Part shown: in pieces, positions 713 to 61,137 of the stretch
How positions within the stretch are numbered: the stretch's first letter is position 1
Layout of the letters: each line of letters opens with the position of its first letter
Source: Shigella phage ESh36
Length of the DNA stretch: 64,000 nt
Reading direction: 5' to 3' (one strand)
Sequence record: ON528746
Notes under the pieces: model-generated
Told to the model about the DNA's origin: nothing
The model's input: only the letters and a program-made list of their open reading frames with translations
Database searches by the model: none
Program-made: the position numbers and the translations under genes

Positions 713-740
713 TTTCTGTTCCTCCGTAGTTGATAGGGTA

Positions 741-770
741 ATAATACCACAGAGGAACAGTCTTGTAAAC
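741..770 (-). promoter_or_regulatory. T4-type early promoter (GTTTAC -35, 18-bp spacer, TATTAT -10)
   Basis: Minus strand reads GTTTACAAGACTGTTCCTCTGTGGTATTAT, followed by GGAGG and ATG at 712. Confidence 0.6.
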
Positions 771-3323: not shown

Positions 3324-5501
3324 TTAGGCCGCAAGGGCCTTCATAGTTTTAGCGATTTGGGAAACTTCATCATCACTTAAAGAGTTGCGATAACCGATGA
3401 AGTCGGAAACAATACGGAATTTCTTGGTAAACTCAGCAACCATTTTATCACTATTTTTTGAAGCATTACGTGATAATTCATCAAAGAGATTAGTTACTGT
3501 CCAGATATCATGACCAATGGTATCTTTTCCACCATTGAAATACACACCGCGTAATGAACTAACCATATTAGCGAGTCGTGTATATTCTTCAGAAACTTCA
3601 TCTGTACTGAAGTACTTCATCATAAAATCTAGTTCAGGATGCTTGATAATTTTATCAATATATCGTTGAGCTGAACTTGAATAACCTACATACTTATCAT
3701 AATCTACATCATCAAAAGCATCTACATATAAATCACGCAAAGCTTCAAAAATACATTGGCACTGACCGAGTTCTTTTACCTTTTTCTGTAAAAGCGGACG
3801 AATAACATAAAATTCATTAATGCCAATAAGATTAGCCATACGAATCAAAATATTCATAGATGGATGACAAAGTGATGTAGTACCATCCATAGAGAAAATA
3901 TCAGAACGATGCATATACGCTACATAACCAGTAATTTCATCTGCTTCTGACGTAAGTGTAAATAATTCCTCTTTTTCCCAACGCCCATCTTTAATTTCAA
4001 ACTTAAATGCTGTAGCAGCTTTAGGACGAGGAGCTTTACTTTTAACTGCCTTCGGAATATAACTTTTAACTAAAGCTTCAATTTCTGACAAATAATGAAT
4101 GTTAACTTCATCACTTTCAAACATTGCCATAATATCAGGGAGTAAATCAATCTGCGATTCTACTTCCGGATTAATAAACAAAAGACGCTCATTATGATGA
4201 ATATTCAAAGTGTTATTAAATTCACTATCATCTAACGCATGCGCTAATCCACGGACAATATTAACGCGATTTTTAATATTATCAATAACGATATTAATTT
4301 TTGTTGTATTAATACCGAACAGACGATAACTTGATGCAACGGCTGAAGTTTCATGACTTTGCTTAATGCGTTTCAGTCGAGGGTCAAGATTTACTTCATA
4401 CACAACTCCTGCATTGCATAGCTTACTATCTGGTTCAAACATGCTTTGCATCTTCTTATATGACAGATTTTTAGTCGTAAATTTGACTGAATTACTAATC
4501 ATATAATCTCGAGCAGAATATCCCATCTTCATCAATTCACGGTATGTATGACGAGGAGATGTAGATTCTTTAAATCGTTTTACATCTTCATTGAATGCCT
4601 TCTCACTAAGCTCTTTAACACGCTCAATAATATTTTTACGAGTACGATCATCTAATGAAAGAGCTTCGCGTGATGGAGCAATATCAAGTGAACCCATTGG
4701 AAACTTAATGTAATTCACTTCATTACGGATGCTTAACCAGTTACGGTCTCTAATAACACCATCAATAGGATAAACAATACCGCCGTAGATAGCATATAAT
4801 CCACCACGATCTGGCCAATATCTTTCTGGATTTACACCGTAATAGTCATCAAAATCCGGAAAATAATCAATTTCACGGTCAAGACCATTAATGATAGCCA
4901 AATCTTTGAATGGTCGCATGATATAAGAAACTTCATAAGCAAAGTTTCTAAAGTCTTTTTCTTCAACTGGAACTACGATTTCAATACCAGTTTTATCATC
5001 TGGACCCATTTCTTTTACGAATGTAGGTTTAATCTGTGGACCATCACCATCCATGTAAGCTACATAACCACGAATTTCACCTTTATGATATGAAGTAATA
5101 CTAAATGTATCAGTATAACTAAACGGAGATTTAGAACCTAAACCAAACCCGCCAATAAAGTCATTAGATTCAGCCTTAGATGAACTGAAGTATGAATTAT
5201 ACAGACCAGGAGAATTATCATCACCCTGAATATCAAAATCACTCATACCCGGACCAAAATCTCGACAAACAAATCGTGGATCTAAACGTCCAGGAACTTG
5301 TATGATAAATTTTTCAGGATTTCCATTGAGAGCATGGGCATCAATCATGTTGGTAATCAATTCACGGACTACTGCGCGAATTTTGTTTGTATACAAATCA
5401 GATGACAGAATTTTAAATACTTTAGGAGATGCTGTGATGCTAAATGCTTTTGATTTAGAACCATTACCAAGAATTGTTTCTTTTTCAGTGGTGATAATCA
5501 T
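3324..5501 (-). CDS. rIIA: rIIA protein
   Basis: 725-aa ORF beginning [27 protein letters not shown], matching recalled T4 rIIA N-terminus and length. Confidence 0.9.
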
Positions 5502-6302: not shown

Positions 6303-7101
6303 TATACACCTCATAGAACTTTTCATCAGGAATCCAACCGCGTTTAAATTCATTAAATGCTCGGCCGAATAATTTTGAATTCACAGTTATATTATTAACT
6401 GATTTCCATTTAGCAACTCCCGTTCGTTTATAATGATCGGGGTCATATTTCGTGACGTACCATTCATATAAATTTGGTATTAATTTTACAGCCTCTGGAT
6501 TTGTCGCTGATTTATTATACCATGGTTTCGCCTTTTCAAGTTCAGCTGCTTTTGCAGTAGCAGCAACAGTATTTCCAATACCAACTAATTTTTCAGCTTT
6601 AATGCGTGGATCATTAACATGAAGACGAAAAACTTCGCCTTTTTCATTTTTAAAGCATGTCATGCCTTTAATTCCAGGAAGCTTAACACCTTTATTAACA
6701 CCGCACCATTCCTTTGGGTTAAATGATCCTTTAATTAATAAGGCGCATTTACCCGATTTAATACTTCTCATTAAAACTTTATCTTTCATAAAGTTTTTTG
6801 ACCATTCAGATACTGCTCTTTGATGGTAAATTCTAGCAATTTCATATAATTTACTAGAACGTAAATATTTTTCAGTGTTTAACATTCTATTCATCGCATA
6901 TGCCATTTCACGATTACGATGAATTTTATATAGTAGAAAATGTGCTAAAAAGTGTTCACGAAAAGTCAGTTTCACCAAATTTTCTTTATCATCAGAACCT
7001 CCCATTGATCTTGGAAGGATATGATGAATTTCACCCTTAAATTTAGAAACGCGGGTTTTACCCCGCACTATTAAGTCATTATAGATTTTTTCGTAATTCA
7101 C
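6283..7101 (-). CDS. mobA: HNH homing endonuclease (MobA-like)
   Basis: HNH motif EIHHILPRSMGGSDDKENLVKLTFREHFLAHF; lies between gene 39 and gene 60; apparent GTG start overlapping gene 39 end. Confidence 0.7.
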   Translation of the reverse strand: MNYEKIYNDLIVRGKTRVSKFKGEIHHILPRSMGGSDDKENLVKLTFREHFLAHFLLYKIHRNREMAYAMNRMLNTEKYLRSSKLYEIARIYHQRAVSEWSKNFMKDKVLMRSIKSGKCALLIKGSFNPKEWCGVNKGVKLPGIKGMTCFKNEKGEVFRLHVNDPRIKAEKLVGIGNTVAATAKAAELEKAKPWYNKSATNPEAVKLIPNLYEWYVTKYDPDHYKRTGVAKWKSVNNITVNSKLFGRAFNEFKRGWIPDEKFYEVYNEICKN

Positions 7102-8632
7102 CTACTGTTATCCATTTACCATTAATCTGTACTTCATCATTTTCATTTACGATAATTGTATCGCCATTTAGTTCGAAAGTAAACCACTCGCCATCTTCTT
7201 TTTCTTCAAACGCCTTTTCACCAAGAACTAATCCAGTGATTGCGCAAATATCAAATAATTCTTTGTTTTTAAGCATATCGGCATATGACATACCCCAACT
7301 GTTGAGAACTTTACCACGTAATGGATAACCGCCATGAAGTTCTTTATCACGAACATCAATAAGATATCCGATAGCAGAATCACCCTCAGTCAAGAAAAGA
7401 GTAGTGTCAGCGTCTTTACCGCAAAGATTCGCTTTAATATGTTTATGAACCTTAGCTTTAGAAGCCTTTTTAGCTGCTTTAGTTTCTGCTGCTTTTTCTG
7501 CCGCCAATTTACGAGCCAAGGCAGCTTCAATAATTGGCATCAAAATAGCTTCATTATTTAGAATAGCGCGTGAAATCTTTTTAGCATCAAGTTGAATATG
7601 ACTACGGATTTCACCAAATGGAGAAGTCAAACGCTCTTTAGTCTGAGAATCAAATCGCATGTTTTTCATATCACGAACAAACATAACGATAGTCAAACAT
7701 TCTTTAACGCGTGCTTTAGTTACATCAATTTTGAACTTGCGTTTGATTTGTGGAATAAGGTCTTCACAAATATCATCCATAACACAGTCAATGTGATGGC
7801 CACCATTCTTAGTATGAATGTTATTGACGTATGTTAATTGACGAAAACCATCCGGTGAACGACCAACCGCAATAGAACAATTTTCTTGTTCTTGAACGAT
7901 AGCATGTTCATCATACTGTCGTGCATATTTCTTAAAATTGCCCTGAACCTTTTTACCATTAAAGGTAAATTGAATATCAGGATAAACAACAGCAAGTGTC
8001 TGGAGACGATCTAGTGTAATGTCAAGATAAACCTGAGATAGCTCATTAGTTTCAAATGACATAAAATCAGGAATGAAAGTAACACGAGTTCCTTTCCATT
8101 TTCCAGGAATAGTTTCCCATGATTTATTTTCCATGCCATTTGAACAACGAACTACAATATTATTTTGACCGTCGCCAGTTTCACCGACAAACATCACAGA
8201 AAAAATGTTAGTTAAACTAGAACCAACACCGTTCATACCGCCAGTGACACGTTCTTTATCATCGCCAAAGTTACCACCTGCTTTTGGAATAGTCCATGCA
8301 GCAACAGGACCAGGAATTTCTTCACCGGTAGGTGTTTTAACCATTGCCTGTGGAATACCACGACCGTTATCTTCAACTGTTACTTGGTTGTTTTTGATAG
8401 TAACATTAATTTTATTTGCGAATTTAAACTTAGTACGAATACCTTCATCTACTGAGTTATCGATAATTTCATCAATAAGCTTAACAAGACCAGGTACATA
8501 CTGAACACTTTCCCATTTACCAAACAGAAAGCGCTCATGCATTTCATTAGCAGAAGAACCAATGTACATGCCGCTACGCTTTTTGATATGTTCAATATCG
8601 CTCAGAATTTTAATTTCATTCTTAATCATCAC
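7079..8632 (-). CDS. 39: DNA topoisomerase II large subunit (GyrB-like ATPase) gp39
   Basis: 517-aa ORF with GHKL ATPase motifs (IIDNSVDEG, GGMNGVGSS). Confidence 0.9.
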   Translation of the reverse strand: MMIKNEIKILSDIEHIKKRSGMYIGSSANEMHERFLFGKWESVQYVPGLVKLIDEIIDNSVDEGIRTKFKFANKINVTIKNNQVTVEDNGRGIPQAMVKTPTGEEIPGPVAAWTIPKAGGNFGDDKERVTGGMNGVGSSLTNIFSVMFVGETGDGQNNIVVRCSNGMENKSWETIPGKWKGTRVTFIPDFMSFETNELSQVYLDITLDRLQTLAVVYPDIQFTFNGKKVQGNFKKYARQYDEHAIVQEQENCSIAVGRSPDGFRQLTYVNNIHTKNGGHHIDCVMDDICEDLIPQIKRKFKIDVTKARVKECLTIVMFVRDMKNMRFDSQTKERLTSPFGEIRSHIQLDAKKISRAILNNEAILMPIIEAALARKLAAEKAAETKAAKKASKAKVHKHIKANLCGKDADTTLFLTEGDSAIGYLIDVRDKELHGGYPLRGKVLNSWGMSYADMLKNKELFDICAITGLVLGEKAFEEKEDGEWFTFELNGDTIIVNENDEVQINGKWITVGELRKNL

Positions 8633-9140: not shown

Positions 9141-9560
9141 TTATTCCTTAAAGTGAGCTTTCAACATCTGATACAAGGACCATGCTTGTTCATTATTTTC
9201 AATAGTAACTTTCATGATCGGGAATTCTGTGAAATCTTCTATTTGTTCTTGCTCTTCCTGCTCTTGCTCTTCAGCTGCCTGATATGGATTTTCCACTTCA
9301 TCAAAGAACCCAGCTTCACTTTTTGAAAGCCAAATAAAGTCTTCATCCAAAACATCTTTACCAGAAGATAGTACTAAATTTCCAGTAGATGACAAAATTT
9401 TAATAGGACGCCCAAGAGCATCCACATCTAAAATTTTAAAAGGATGCATACCTAAACGGCGCGCATAGATTCCGTTATCAGTATGGTCTTTAATAAAATT
9501 TTCTTGAGCTTGTTTATTTTTAAATTGATACCATTTATTAACTTCAAATTTAATAGCCAT
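9141..9560 (-). CDS. hypothetical acidic protein (position of T4 goF)
   Basis: 139-aa ORF with [10 protein letters not shown] acidic run; assignment positional only. Confidence 0.35.
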
Positions 9561-9775
9561 TAATAAATTTCCTTCCAGTAAGTTGTACCGTCTTCAGTAA
9601 TTTCACGAAATACACCATAAATTGGCTGTTTATCACCGACTTTCTCATACACATAAACAGAAGTCAAGTGAGTAAACTTGCTAGTATGTTCCTTTTGAAC
9701 TACTACCAAATCTGGATCGAATAATACATCTTCAAATTCGTCATTAGTACAATTCTGAACAATTTTACGTTTCAT
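9560..9775 (-). CDS. cef: Cef-like small protein
   Basis: 71-aa ORF upstream of motB; size and position match recalled T4 cef. Confidence 0.5.
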
Positions 9776-9870
9776 TACAATTTCCTCATTAATTGAACAT
9801 TGGAGCGATGCATTTCAGAAGAGTATCAACACCTTTAGCGAATTTTCCATTTTATTCTCCAAGTTGTTTT

Positions 9871-9922
9871 CTATATCAGTAGTTGATATTGATATAGTAC
9901 CATAATCAACTACTGATGTATA
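9871..9922. repeat. inverted repeat (13-bp perfect arms, extended imperfect) in cef-motB intergenic
   Basis: atcagtagttgat ... atcaactactgat flanked by ctatat / atatag. Confidence 0.6.
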
Positions 9923-9947
9923 TAGTTTTATGAAAAAATTTTAAACT

Positions 9948-10436
9948 TTATGCATAGAGAGCTTTGCTGTAGTGTTTAATCCAACTTTCAGGAATGACTT
10001 TGTATGTTCCTAAAAATACCACGTTGTACAACTTAACGCCATCTTCTACCCACTGATCGGTAATGTATGCGCACATAGCACGAGTATAAACAGCCGCACC
10101 ATCATCTTTGATAAATTTAAATTCACAAGGAGCAATGAACTTAATAGCCTGACCGAGTTTCCACTTAAAGTCTACACCTACATGCGAAGTATCAATCGTT
10201 TCAATTCCTTTAGCAGGAACAGCTTTCAAAAACGCAGACTCAAGAAATTTCGCACGAACATAGCCAAACTGGGGTTTAGACTTTCCATCTTTAGGAATGA
10301 TACGCACTTTTACTTCAGAATCTTCATCTTTAACGCCGTGTTTAAGCTGAATGCTTACAATTTCGACCAATTTTCCTGCTGCTTTAGAACGGGATTTATC
10401 AGATACACGAGCAATTTCACCAATATTAATAATCAT
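9948..10436 (-). CDS. motB: MotB-like protein
   Basis: 162-aa ORF; size and position match T4 motB; preceded by early promoter. Confidence 0.6.
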   Translation of the reverse strand: MIINIGEIARVSDKSRSKAAGKLVEIVSIQLKHGVKDEDSEVKVRIIPKDGKSKPQFGYVRAKFLESAFLKAVPAKGIETIDTSHVGVDFKWKLGQAIKFIAPCEFKFIKDDGAAVYTRAMCAYITDQWVEDGVKLYNVVFLGTYKVIPESWIKHYSKALYA

Positions 10437-10480
10437 AGTTATCTCTCACTTGTTAAAAAGATTTTATACTCCACAGGACC

Positions 10481-10510
10481 ATTATACTCTGGTCCCAAGA
10501 GTTTGTAAAC
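10481..10510 (-). promoter_or_regulatory. T4-type early promoter
   Basis: GTTTAC, 18 bp, TATAAT on minus strand. Confidence 0.6.
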
Positions 10511-10512
10511 TA

Positions 10513-11052
10513 TTAATTCAAAATAGCTACCACTGCACTACGAGGTACTACACTAAAATCACCTGCATGAACAACGTTCAGAAGTTCAACACCATCTTCA
10601 ATCCACTGGTCTGTTACCCAACCACAGACCGAAATAAATGGGGTCTTGATAGCTACAGCACGAGTTAGAAGGTCAGTAGGATCGCATTCTTGGAAGAGGA
10701 TAAGCTCTGCTTCAAAGACTATAGTTTTAATTACTTCATCATTATCTAAGCGTTGTGCTCGAATCACATAAGCTTTATTCTTATCATGCCAATTACTTTT
10801 TGAAAAACTTTTAACCACAAACTCGCCTTCACCCAAAACACTGGTCAATGCTTTATAACCCAAACTTAGTTCAGTAGTTTTAATTTCAGTTTCAACCAGT
10901 TTGTAGGTTTTGCCGATTTCAATAGCGGTAGTCATAGTAGGTTCCTTAATTTCCAGTGGTTTAACAGGGCATACATAAGTGCTTACAACATCAAAATCAA
11001 TCAGTTTAGCTACCGGATTTGGTGTGTATTCAGGATTATAATTAAATTTCAT
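10513..11052 (-). CDS. hypothetical protein
   Basis: 179-aa ORF. Confidence 0.5.
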   Translation of the reverse strand: MKFNYNPEYTPNPVAKLIDFDVVSTYVCPVKPLEIKEPTMTTAIEIGKTYKLVETEIKTTELSLGYKALTSVLGEGEFVVKSFSKSNWHDKNKAYVIRAQRLDNDEVIKTIVFEAELILFQECDPTDLLTRAVAIKTPFISVCGWVTDQWIEDGVELLNVVHAGDFSVVPRSAVVAILN

Positions 11053-11555: not shown

Positions 11556-11582
11556 TTTATTATCCTCAGTAGCTATGGTGTT

Positions 11583-11612
11583 ATAATACCACAACTAACC
11601 GAGGAAGTAAAC
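11583..11612 (-). promoter_or_regulatory. T4-type early promoter
   Basis: GTTTAC, 18 bp, TATTAT on minus strand. Confidence 0.55.
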
Positions 11613-22989: not shown

Positions 22990-23018
22990 AACAATCTCCC
23001 CATTTAACCAACAAGACT

Positions 23019-23048
23019 ACTATACCATAGTCTTGTCAGCTTGTAAAC
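23019..23048 (-). promoter_or_regulatory. T4-type early promoter
   Basis: GTTTAC, 18 bp, TATAGT; -35 overlaps the gene 41 stop codon (TAGTTTAC). Confidence 0.55.
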
Positions 23049-30885: not shown

Positions 30886-30915
30886 ATAGTACCACAGAGG
30901 AACAGTCTTGTAAAC
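30886..30915 (-). promoter_or_regulatory. T4-type early promoter
   Basis: GTTTAC, 18 bp, TACTAT; part of a repeated cassette. Confidence 0.6.
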
Positions 30916-53007: not shown

Positions 53008-53037
53008 ATTATACCACATCCTTGTGGCAAAGTAAAC
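53008..53037 (-). promoter_or_regulatory. T4-type early promoter
   Basis: GTTTAC, 18 bp, TATAAT; -35 overlaps upstream stop codon. Confidence 0.6.
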
Positions 53038-55953: not shown

Positions 55954-55981
55954 TTTCTGTTCCTCCGTAGTTGATAGTTGT

Positions 55982-56011
55982 ATAGTACCACAGAGGAACA
56001 GTCTTGTAAAC
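55982..56011 (-). promoter_or_regulatory. T4-type early promoter
   Basis: GTTTAC, 18 bp, TACTAT; repeated cassette copy. Confidence 0.6.
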
Positions 56012-56417: not shown

Positions 56418-57386
56418 TTATTTCAGAAGAGTAACCTCAGCAATTTCTTCCCAACCGTTTTTGTCGGTCATAATAAAGTCAGCAAGATAAAGAGCAGTAC
56501 GCAGTGAAACATTGCGTAAACGATTAACATTAACTTTCATCCATGATAATGCTTTATAAGTTTCTTCATCAGAAAGACCGCGCTTTTGCATCATGTCAGT
56601 TGAAAGAATAACATCTTCAACCCTGACCATAATTTCTTCATTAGTGTGAACACCCAAATCTAAATAAACTGAGCGGGACACTAATGCTTGTAAATGTGGA
56701 GCAAGTTTAGTACCACGGTCTAATTCGCGGTCAATGTCAACGTTTGTGATAAAAACAATCGTTCCTTTAAATTCAAACTCACGCTCAATGCCTTTTTCTT
56801 CTAAGTAAGAAGATGCAGTGCTCCAGCAGACTTTACGGGTCTCTCCGGTGTCCAGAGCGGCTTTTAGAAGATTAAGAATGTCCATATCAGAGAAAACATC
56901 CACATCATCAATCAAAAGGACAGAATTCTCTTCACGATTATTCCAGAGCTGTTCATAAAGACCAATACCAGAGATTTTACCGTTAATGCTTTTATATTCA
57001 ATGTATCCCTTATCATTTGCTTTATTCAAAGCTTTATCTAAAGAATACGTTTTACCAATACCCGCCGCACCAGAGATAATTAATGAACGAATGTTTCCGT
57101 TAATAATACCATTCGTCATCATTCCCATAACATTAAATCTTTTATTAATGCGGGTTTTCATATCTTCATATGATTCTTTAACTTCTTCAACTTTTACACC
57201 ATCATATGAAATGTCTGATTTGTAAACCCAAACACCGCGACGCTTACCGTCAATTTCAACAAAAACTTTACCATCTCCTTGTGCATCTACCGGAGCATTA
57301 TCTGGGAACCATTCACCTAAGAGCTCAAAAGTTCCAGAGATTTCTTTACCGAAGTAGATACCCTTATTGATAGTTACAGTTTTCAT
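56418..57386 (-). CDS. P-loop NTPase (Walker A/B ATPase)
   Basis: Walker A GAAGIGKT and Walker B VLLIDDVD; ATG start MKTVTINK with GGAG SD. Confidence 0.55.
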   Translation of the reverse strand: MKTVTINKGIYFGKEISGTFELLGEWFPDNAPVDAQGDGKVFVEIDGKRRGVWVYKSDISYDGVKVEEVKESYEDMKTRINKRFNVMGMMTNGIINGNIRSLIISGAAGIGKTYSLDKALNKANDKGYIEYKSINGKISGIGLYEQLWNNREENSVLLIDDVDVFSDMDILNLLKAALDTGETRKVCWSTASSYLEEKGIEREFEFKGTIVFITNVDIDRELDRGTKLAPHLQALVSRSVYLDLGVHTNEEIMVRVEDVILSTDMMQKRGLSDEETYKALSWMKVNVNRLRNVSLRTALYLADFIMTDKNGWEEIAEVTLLK

Positions 57387-57422
57387 TTTATTCTCCAATC
57401 TCACATTTGTTTTGATAGGGTA

Positions 57423-57452
57423 ATAGTATCACACTACTACCCTTCTGTAAAC
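57423..57452 (-). promoter_or_regulatory. T4-type early promoter
   Basis: GTTTAC, 18 bp, TACTAT. Confidence 0.55.
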
Positions 57453-57719: not shown

Positions 57720-57865
57720 TGATTCTTCTCCAAATAAGTTTCGATAATTTTCTGAGCGAGATAAACCGCGTTATCTTCAGTTGCGTCTTCTAAGAAACTT
57801 TCAAAACACTCTGAAATTTCTTCTGTGTCAATCAACTTTTTTACTTCAATTGGTGTAATTTTCAT
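57716..57865 (-). CDS. hypothetical small acidic protein
   Basis: ATG at 57865 (MKITPIEV) with GGAG SD and early promoter. Confidence 0.4.
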   Translation of the reverse strand: MKITPIEVKKLIDTEEISECFESFLEDATEDNAVYLAQKIIETYLEKNQ

Positions 57866-57899
57866 TTTATTCTCCAAATCCGTATCAGTTGATAGTTGT

Positions 57900-60975: not shown

Positions 60976-61107
60976 TACATACTCCTTTGAATAATATCAA
61001 TAATGTTGTTCACCAGATTATAAGTAAACATTGGGTAATTATATTGAATCATCACATACACAACAAACAAAACTTTCATTCTCTTCTCCTTGGCAGTTGA
61101 CAAGATT

Positions 61108-61137
61108 ACTATACCATAACCTTGCCAACTTGTAAAC
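61108..61137 (-). promoter_or_regulatory. T4-type early promoter
   Basis: GTTTAC, 18 bp, TATAGT. Confidence 0.55.

Follow-up and report, generated by a model that had tools for sequence, protein, structure and literature searches.

A long inverted repeat between motB and cef of a T4-like phage resembles a degraded PeSL-type promoter cassette of apparently templated origin

PeSLs (promoter-early stem-loops) were defined in RB49 and phi1 (Arbiol et al., 2010, PMC2839356). Each is an intergenic cassette in which a sigma-70-like early promoter and its A/T-rich tract are combined with a stable stem-loop, a Shine-Dalgarno sequence (SD) and a start codon. They are divided into five subclasses by the position of the stem-loop, which most commonly lies between the -35 and -10 or overlaps the -10, and G-T pairs are marked in their stems; one RB49 PeSL stem-loop matched rrnB T1 in lowering the expression of a lacZ reporter, and PeSLs recombined with one another to release ORFs as mini-circles (PMC2839356). 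The class was extended to PST/T4 with the promoter consensus TTTACW-N17-TAYWAT; in these phages most stems immediately precede the promoter and have the consensus AGNA-loop-TCNT, and degraded members have weak or wrongly spaced boxes beside insertions and deletions (Comeau et al., 2014, PMC4122927). The canonical T4 early promoter is composed of UP, a -35 of GTTTAC, TGn and the -10 (Hinton, 2010, PMC2988021).

The inverted repeat described here lies between motB and cef in a 64-kb window (the whole stretch of 64,000 nucleotides that was analysed, from Shigella phage ESh36, ON528746). The phage is T4-like and belongs to the genus Tequatrovirus, and the local genes are on the minus strand (Table 1). 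A 1-kb query around the repeat matched 522 phage records, the best at 97.4% identity and T4-type genomes at 93-97%. Judged by its sequence features, the motB-cef element is a degraded PeSL, a member of an already described class and not a new kind of element. It sits inside the 172-nt gap between the motB stop codon and cef, and an ORF remnant lies between the repeat and cef. The parent of this remnant is an 89-aa ORF (phrog_3720), which is whole in many relatives, where it is found between the hairpin and cef, and which has been cut to 11 codons by an internal deletion in T4 and in the window; the promoter cassette that contains the repeat first served this ORF. The gene upstream of the hairpin also varies, being either motB or, in the RB51, RB27 and SA21RB types, an RB51ORF010-like/MotB-like ORF.

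Table 1. Positions of genes and cassette elements around the motB-cef repeat in the window.
Feature	Position	Strand	Remarks
gp39	7079-8632	-	
goF	9141-9560	-	
cef	9560-9775	-	without a promoter of its own; downstream of the ORF remnant
11-codon ORF remnant (MENSLKVLILF, stop)	9815-9850	-	from alignment with T4_ev151; intact ORF annotated in relatives
Shine-Dalgarno GGAG and ATG	9848-9860	-	SD 9857-9860, ATG 9848-9850; 3' end of the cassette
Complete predicted RNA stem-loop	9871-9925	-	55 nt
3' arm, ATCAACTACTGAT	9875-9887	-	atcagtagttgat on the + strand; leader of the early-promoter cassette, about +1 to +13 of the residual promoter
Extended -10, TGG-TACTAT	9894-9902	-	TGn 9900-9902, hexamer 9894-9899; in the hairpin loop
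5' arm, ATCAGTAGTTGAT	9905-9917	-	atcaactactgat on the + strand; promoter spacer, -30 to -18; exact reverse complement of the cassette's own leader
Degenerate -35 slot, ATATAC	9918-9923	-	aligned to GTTTAC of VIPECOMC06 and ST2
A/T-rich UP-element-like tract, AGTTTAAAATTTTTTCATAAAACT	9924-9947	-	directly after the motB stop; contains the T-run
motB	9948-10436	-	stop codon 9948-9950

The two arms form a perfect 13-bp repeat with a loop of 17 nt; their centres are 30 bp apart and symmetrical about the -10, and the loop includes atagtacca (9894-9902), which reads TGGTACTAT on the transcribed minus strand. The original prediction had described perfect 13-bp arms around a -10-like core, and both coordinates and sequence were verified. 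The extension of the arms by ctatat/atatag, which it had also proposed, exists but is offset: CUAUA (9925-9921) pairs with UAUAG (9875-9871) across a 4-nt bulge, and the structure reaches 9925, past the end at 9922 first given for it. The predicted RNA hairpin is composed of this outer 5-bp helix, the 4-nt bulge, a main stem of 12-13 bp, an inner 5-bp helix with one G.U pair and a 3-nt loop. Structure prediction thus agrees with the large hairpin that had been anticipated, with the sense RNA folding at -21.1 kcal/mol against -7.3 +/- 2.4 kcal/mol for shuffled sequences (z = -5.76; 0 of 200 shuffles equally stable). The repeat is the longest perfect inverted repeat in the window when loops of 3-40 nt are scanned; its arm length alone is only marginally unusual, as 7 of 40 dinucleotide shuffles of the window reach 13 bp (0.175 repeats of at least 13 bp per shuffle). 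We judge the repeat to be non-random because of its placement exactly around the -10, the local fold z-score and its conservation.

The cassettes of the window share the order A/T-rich UP tract, -35, 17-nt spacer, TGn, -10 TACTAT, leader ATCAACTACTGAT, GGAG and ATG, and the motB-cef site had been suggested to be a copy of them. A position-weight model derived from 16 early promoters of the window, with the motB-cef site outside the training set, bears this out: the site scores 28.4 bits, which ranks it 17th of 127,880 positions and makes it the best of all sites that were not used for training; its score falls inside the leave-one-out range of real promoters (10.9-56.7). Its -10 is worth 7.7 bits, as much as in the window's canonical promoters. 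Compared with the cassette consensus of the window, AAAATTTTTCACAAAGT, the 20 nt that precede the -35 slot (9924-9943) reach 10.7 bits. Three other promoters of the window, at 30915, 56011 and 1276, have this leader behind them, and it is identical in the Mosigvirus cassette, while the SD motif TTGGAGAATAAAATG is seen again at 57384-57398 and 57863-57877. The -35 slot scores -1.1 bits versus +11.1 in all 16 other early promoters, every one of which has GTTTAC; in E. coli terms, the -35 is TATACA at 17 nt from the -10. The original prediction had the repeat replacing the -35 element. GTTTAC is indeed missing, but what the repeat replaces is the spacer (-30 to -18), and the -35 slot just upstream is degraded to ATATAC. 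Since the site keeps its -35 slot, 17-nt spacing, TGn, -10, UP-like tract, leader and SD, it reads as a copy of the repeated early-promoter cassette, that is, a weakened promoter and not a promoter-less hairpin. The predicted start of this residual promoter is at ~9887 (T4 ~6594, minus strand), and with UP, TGn and -10 but a poor -35 it may still start some transcripts of the small ORF, cef and goF.

Other promoter assignments were considered. A GTTTAA just after the motB stop codon is 41 nt from the -10, a distance that shifts with the T-run among relatives, and it was rejected as the true -35 because alignment to canonical cassettes puts the -35 slot at 9918-9923. Nor does the site qualify as a T4 middle (MotA-dependent) promoter: a MotA box, (a/t)(a/t)(a/t)TGCTTtA, would be centred on -30 with 11-13 nt to the -10, but the sequence there is ATCAGTAGTTGAT, and the listed T4 middle promoters include none between positions 5349 and 10058. 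A consensus promoter scan of 9400-10700 gave matches only upstream of motB. The T4 records NC_000866, AF158101 and M89919 carry CDS features only, with no regulatory annotation, and the motB-cef intergenic region is unmentioned in T4 reviews and in the MotB and GoF papers.

A canonical counterpart of the cassette was found among more distant matches, in Mosigvirus phage VIPECOMC06 (84.7% identity) and phage ST2 (78.8%). It had been proposed to check whether relatives have a standard promoter here, and in these two phages the homologous cassette is a textbook T4-type early promoter with GTTTAC, 17-nt spacing and TGG-TACTAT. The canonical cassette, ...TTTTCACAAAACT-GTTTAC-ATCCCTGTTCTTCTATGG-TACTAT-ATCAATATCAACTACTGATACAG...GGAGAATAAAATG, aligns without gaps to the T4-type cassette, ...TTTTCATAAAACT-ATATAC-ATCAGTAGTTGATTATGG-TACTAT-ATCAATATCAACTACTGATACAG..., and comparison with VIPECOMC06 over 68 nt shows 11 differences, of which ten fall in a single 19-nt stretch (-36 to -18) and none between -17 and +19 (p ~0.001 for the clustering, corrected for the choice of stretch). 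Eight of ten central spacer positions differ from the canonical form, and all eight match the reverse complement of the leader, such that leader positions +1 to +13 and the rewritten spacer patch are exact reverse complements. The partial duplication in inverted orientation that had been postulated is therefore seen here as a 5' arm that is an exact inverted copy of the leader. Predicted fold stability is -4.8 kcal/mol for the canonical Mosigvirus cassette, -20.2 kcal/mol for T4 and -21.1 kcal/mol for the window. On this sequence comparison the GTTTAC form is ancestral, because all 16 other promoters of the window keep GTTTAC, several of them with related spacers. No spacers intermediate between the canonical and palindromic forms were found among the sampled matches down to 79% identity.

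Clustered, perfectly complementary change of this kind looks like the product of a single templated event, since the changes are both clustered and all-at-once in pattern. In a common Tequatrovirus ancestor the patch from -36 to -18 would have been rewritten, with GTTTAC becoming ATATAC by two substitutions and ten spacer bases becoming the exact reverse complement of the leader, in one intrastrand template switch or quasi-palindrome 'correction'; the seed for this event would have been the complementarity present on either side of the patch in the canonical cassette (ATC/GAT and CTGT/ACAG). Quasi-palindrome 'correction' with short complementarity flanking the patch is known in T4, and Ripley and co-workers reportedly described quasi-palindrome-templated mutation in T4 rII. 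The motB-cef case is like these mutations in that a cluster of substitutions makes an imperfect palindrome perfect, with flanking complementarity already present in the canonical cassette. It differs in that the event is reconstructed from genome comparison, its direction is read from 16 canonical copies, and it comprises a 10-nt patch plus two changes in the -35.

Conservation of the palindrome in relatives had been named as a further check, and in close relatives it is conserved. The hairpin is identical in T4, RB59 and T4_ev151, identical or nearly so in PST, RB27, fPS-90, KNP1, KAW1E185 and SA21RB, and near-invariant in an alignment of eight Tequatrovirus sequences (T4, RB59, PST, RB27, fPS-90, KNP1, KAW1E185 and SA21RB). 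An 89-nt query of the phage collection returned 588 records, 520 of them with at least 80% coverage and 562 at 90% identity or more; an exact-pattern scan of IMG/VR for the loop and 3' arm found only 5 contigs, none of them new to the comparison. The T-run just upstream is polymorphic in length among relatives while the hairpin is constant. Only two variants in the aligned sequences touch the arms or the outer helix, and pairing is kept in both: in SA21RB an A>G change in the 5' arm gives a G.U pair, and C>T at 9873 (GATACAG>GATATAG), which the window shares with a few relatives, regains an outer-helix A-U pair that is broken by the ATATAC of T4. The invariance of the hairpin could merely reflect the shallow divergence of Tequatrovirus (93-97% identity overall).

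These observations bear on whether the palindrome does anything at all. It may be a neutral scar, in which one templated or inverted-duplication mutation crippled a redundant promoter and the functionless palindrome was kept by descent. The main stem is perfectly Watson-Crick, and the antisense strand folds as well as the sense strand (-21.1 versus -20.9 kcal/mol), as would be expected of a recent DNA-level event; because the two strands are equally stable, unlike the hairpins at other early promoters, this hairpin has no RNA-specific signature of its own. With genomes only 3-7% diverged here, the invariance of 55 nt is a weak sign of constraint, RNA-seq density is flat across the site (see below), and the ORF that the cassette served has itself been deleted in T4 and the window, as in a decaying region. 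The equal stability on both strands thus fits a recent DNA-level origin and leaves room for a scar. Set against this, ~520 records carry the element intact amid variation in the neighbouring T-run, in the gene upstream and in the ORF downstream; both observed variants keep the pairing; and other genera, as well as other promoters of the window, have stem-loops around the -10 that recur with compensatory changes. Because such stem-loops recur across genera and promoters, the hairpin here is of the kind that selection maintains elsewhere, and we regard a functionless remnant as possible but unlikely.

Stem-loops of this kind, set around the -10, are not confined to the motB-cef site but are a common feature of early promoters in the window and its relatives. 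Hairpins with z of -3.8 or lower (-3.8 to -5.9) are present at six of the 18 extended -10 early promoters on the minus strand (61137, 57452, 56011, 23048, 11612 and 770), and the motB promoter (10510) has a smaller hairpin around its -10. All seven hairpins are 4.7-10.8 kcal/mol better as sense than as antisense RNA, a preference that arises because their stems use G.U pairs. These predicted folds point to RNA rather than DNA as the selected structure at those promoters. At promoters 56011 and 770, the spacer pairs with the downstream SD. Copies of the cassette are found in the window at 30915, 57929, 56011, 1276 and 770, and the same cassette stands ahead of unrelated ORFs in different genera; in Mosigvirus the homologous cassette, with 85% identity over the 89-nt comparison, is followed by an ORF that is unrelated and gives no alignment at E <= 100.

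Upstream of cef in other Tevenvirinae genera, for which we compared RB69/Mosigvirus, Moonvirus, Gelderlandvirus, phage Marfa and several metagenomic lineages, there is a canonical early promoter with a stem of 7-13 bp that pairs approximately -25 to -15 with -8 to +3. The stem sequences differ from lineage to lineage. Across 13 distinct sequences, 75% of alignment cells are paired, versus 31-41% when the partners are slid by 1-3 columns, and both partners are substituted in six pairs (for example, C-G to U-A, or A-U to G-C to U-A). The observed covariation score was reached in 0 of 500 shuffles of this hand-assembled alignment of 13 related sequences. This is good but not formal evidence, at the level of sequence, that the stem around the -10 upstream of cef is kept by compensatory changes. 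The covariation supports the class and not the motB-cef helix itself, because the T4-type stem (-30 to -18 with +1 to +13) is in another register. Since the stems straddle the -10, keep compensatory changes and fold mainly as sense RNA, the family-wide pattern suggests that the stem-loops act on read-through RNA.

The same data weigh on a role at the level of DNA, in which the repeat would be an operator for a dimeric protein, or a cruciform, that occludes the -10 and switches the promoter off. The arms are perfect, symmetrical about the -10 and 30 bp apart from centre to centre, and the shut-off of T4 early promoters is still unexplained (PMC2988021). Within the window, however, the arm sequence is present in both orientations at the motB-cef site only, so that no regulon is apparent, and the stems at other promoters and in other genera differ in sequence, use G.U pairs and are far better as sense RNA. 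A loop of 17 nt, as found here, also disfavours cruciform extrusion. A DNA-level element is, in our estimation, very improbable.

The transcriptional context was assessed from T4 RNA-seq gene counts. Wild-type reads per nt are 24.1 for motB.1, 32.6 for motB, 32.8 for cef and 41.2 for goF (Table S1 of PMC6024815), and the read densities of cef and goF are at least as high as that of motB in six of six conditions. These counts show no net drop or jump across the hairpin, and their flatness fits plain read-through and partial termination with weak re-initiation alike. A genuine terminator is one possibility: motB transcripts would end at the hairpin, and the residual promoter might start transcription anew. 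In the SA21RB record (OL960580.1) the WebGeSTer annotation calls the hairpin a rho-independent terminator, and overlapping pairs of terminator and early promoter are annotated at the motB and motB.2 promoters as well. It resembles an intrinsic terminator in being a stable hairpin (-21 kcal/mol) directly 3' of a stop codon, and the RB49 stem-loop that lowered lacZ as much as rrnB T1 is a PeSL precedent (PMC2839356). Intrinsic terminators, in contrast, have a G+C-rich stem followed by a U-run, whereas the motB-cef stem is A/U-rich with a large structured loop, and its tail, AUAGAAAACAAC, has no U-run. A terminator consensus scan of 9400-10700 returned no terminator-like site, and the density of cef and goF is maintained with no drop across the hairpin despite the poor -35 of the residual promoter. 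Taken together, these points make a terminator improbable.

Processing of the transcript had also been suggested for this site. The hairpin might be recognized by RNase III or another double-strand-specific nuclease, separating motB mRNA from the downstream cistrons: it has ~22 stacked bp with small internal loops between, and is intergenic in a polycistronic early transcript. Phage T7 early mRNA has intergenic hairpins that are RNase III processing sites, and the motB-cef hairpin resembles them. An Rfam scan of 9500-10500, on the other hand, gave no family match at E <= 1, and a review of T4 mRNA decay mentions neither RNase III nor cef, goF or motB. Nothing in our analysis points to a processing site, and we consider one highly unlikely.

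We favour a role in read-through RNA. The 5' arm lies upstream of the predicted start at ~9887, so the hairpin can be present only in read-through RNA from upstream promoters; RNA started at the early promoters of motB or motB.2, for example, would carry it. Positioned 23 nt behind the motB stop codon, the hairpin would serve as punctuation at the RNA level, as a pause or attenuation site and/or as 3'-terminal protection of motB mRNA after downstream cleavage. Because the family shows a sense-strand bias, the element is probably an RNA hairpin of read-through transcripts, acting as an attenuator or 3'-end stabilizer, a function proposed by analogy with the family. At the level of the genome, the cassette would be a recombination module with variable genes on both flanks. 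The attenuator and recombination hotspot put forward in the original prediction agree with proposals made for the PeSL class (PMC2839356, PMC4122927), and by analogy may apply here. The explanation as a whole, a degraded PeSL-type cassette of templated origin that provides RNA punctuation in read-through transcripts, is in our view somewhat more probable than its negation.

A bolder reading is that an early promoter was turned in one templated step into a structural RNA switch and then fixed across the genus, which we think rather unlikely. If true, read-through RNAs would carry the 55-nt hairpin and locally initiated RNAs would not, the two populations of ORF-cef-goF RNA would differ in stability or processing, and the locus would illustrate how, in nature, a promoter can be exapted as a post-transcriptional element. 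The value of the present analysis is mostly one of clarification, in that the palindrome is a degraded copy of portable PeSL cassettes, which have already been tied to gene shuffling among T4-like phages. The locus also shows cleanly, in a natural setting, how clustered and apparently templated mutation can produce a perfect palindrome and remove an otherwise invariant -35; the mutated form is conserved in more than 500 matching Tequatrovirus records.

Comparison with the PeSLs shows anatomical agreement in all parts but the -35. The motB-cef element fills the intergenic interval that separates a stop codon from the following SD and ATG (9947 down to 9848), has an A/T-rich tract upstream of the -35, and has a stable stem-loop in the promoter with the -10 in its loop. 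Within the promoter the TACTAT, TGn and N17 spacing are as expected but the -35, TATACA at -1.1 bits, is not, a combination that fits the published degraded category. It is repeated and tied to indels and ORF replacement among close relatives, just as PeSLs occur in many copies per genome at the edges of insertions, deletions and ORF swaps. The differences are that its -35 is mutated to ATATAC while 16 of 16 other cassettes have GTTTAC, that its stem is unusually long and perfect, derives from an inverted copy of its own leader and falls outside the AGNA-loop-TCNT consensus, and that promoter and terminator activities are putative here. With the canonical T4 early promoter it shares a UP-like tract, 17-nt spacing, TGn, TACTAT and a leader that match the window consensus, but it differs in the score of the -35 and in a spacer that has become a palindromic arm. 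A further parallel is offered by the T4 genes e, soc and I-TevI, where the 5' arm of a hairpin lies upstream of an internal promoter and read-through and locally initiated RNAs fold differently. The motB-cef hairpin has the same arrangement, with its 5' arm upstream of the start and its 3' arm at +1 to +13, although it ends ~10 nt before the SD and leaves the SD unmasked.

Stem-loops are also found at other early promoters of the window, in three arrangements (see table). In the promoter at 56011 and in that at 770, pairing joins the spacer to a segment, CGGAGGAACAG, that includes the Shine-Dalgarno sequence of the downstream gene; because the 5' arm lies upstream of the start site, this sequence is predicted to be masked solely in read-through transcripts. 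The hairpins that straddle the -10 element at five further promoters have predicted folding energies of -15.9 to -23.7 kcal/mol and need G.U pairs, the sense RNA folding 4.7-10.8 kcal/mol better than the antisense RNA. The small CCACA-AGG(A)A-TGTGG hairpin is contained wholly within the -35/-10 spacer at three promoters, and its motif also occurs upstream of cef in Klebsiella phage Roth19 (L056).

Hairpins at early promoters of the window and the open reading frame remnant upstream of cef
Feature	Position	Strand	Details
Spacer-SD pairing, promoter at 56011	55957-56001	-	spacer CTGTTCCTCTG with CGGAGGAACAG, -23.2 kcal/mol
Spacer-SD pairing, promoter at 770	716-760	-	spacer CTGTTCCTCTG with CGGAGGAACAG, -23.2 kcal/mol
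Hairpin straddling -10	61095-61130	-	
Hairpin straddling -10	57414-57445	-	
Hairpin straddling -10	23006-23041	-	
Hairpin straddling -10	11563-11605	-	
Hairpin straddling -10	10468-10502	-	
Small hairpin CCACA-AGG(A)A-TGTGG	promoters at 53037, 5770, 1276	-	wholly within -35/-10 spacer
ORF remnant	9815-9850	-	11 codons, MENSLKVLILF*; preceded by good SD

The short remnant between the motB-cef hairpin and cef stands where, in many relatives, an uncharacterized ORF of 89 aa is intact (phrog_3720; for example, L003:789-1058). T4 and the window share a deletion of ~208 bp at this ORF, with two GxAAAAyTT microhomologies at the junction, as a result of which cef lacks its own promoter. On its 5' side, too, the hairpin adjoins a variable gene, since in RB51, RB27 and SA21RB-type genomes (L025/L033) a different, 139-aa 'MotB-like' ORF replaces motB (9948-10436 in the window) as its direct neighbor, and motB lies one gene further upstream. 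The proteins encoded by motB and the motB.1-like gene (10513-11052) have a C-terminal motif in common, ..TDQW[IV]EDGV.L.NVV..G...V[IV]P.S, and on this sequence likeness they look like paralogues; in other genera, this motif is also carried by the genes that lie upstream of cef.

A homologous promoter cassette is present in the Mosigvirus VIPECOMC06 (L024:905-1257), with 85% identity over the 89-nt query, and in phage ST2 (L023). There it occupies another genomic neighborhood, close to a homing endonuclease gene, and is followed by an 87-aa ORF (phrog_2678) unrelated to the 89-aa ORF of Tequatrovirus. The 171-kb record of ST2 (OM982647.1) is placed taxonomically in Guernseyvirinae; Kagunavirus. 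Its length and T4-type early-promoter cassette suggest a misclassified Tevenvirinae genome.

In the Gaprivervirus UPEC01 (L058, ~333-400), the interval between motB and a goF/cef-like gene retains no recognizable -35 or -10 element and contains the hairpin GATAGGGTA-attt-TGCCCTATC, the 3' arm of which is the leader found in other genera. Here, too, a promoter cassette may have decayed until only its stem-loop was left.
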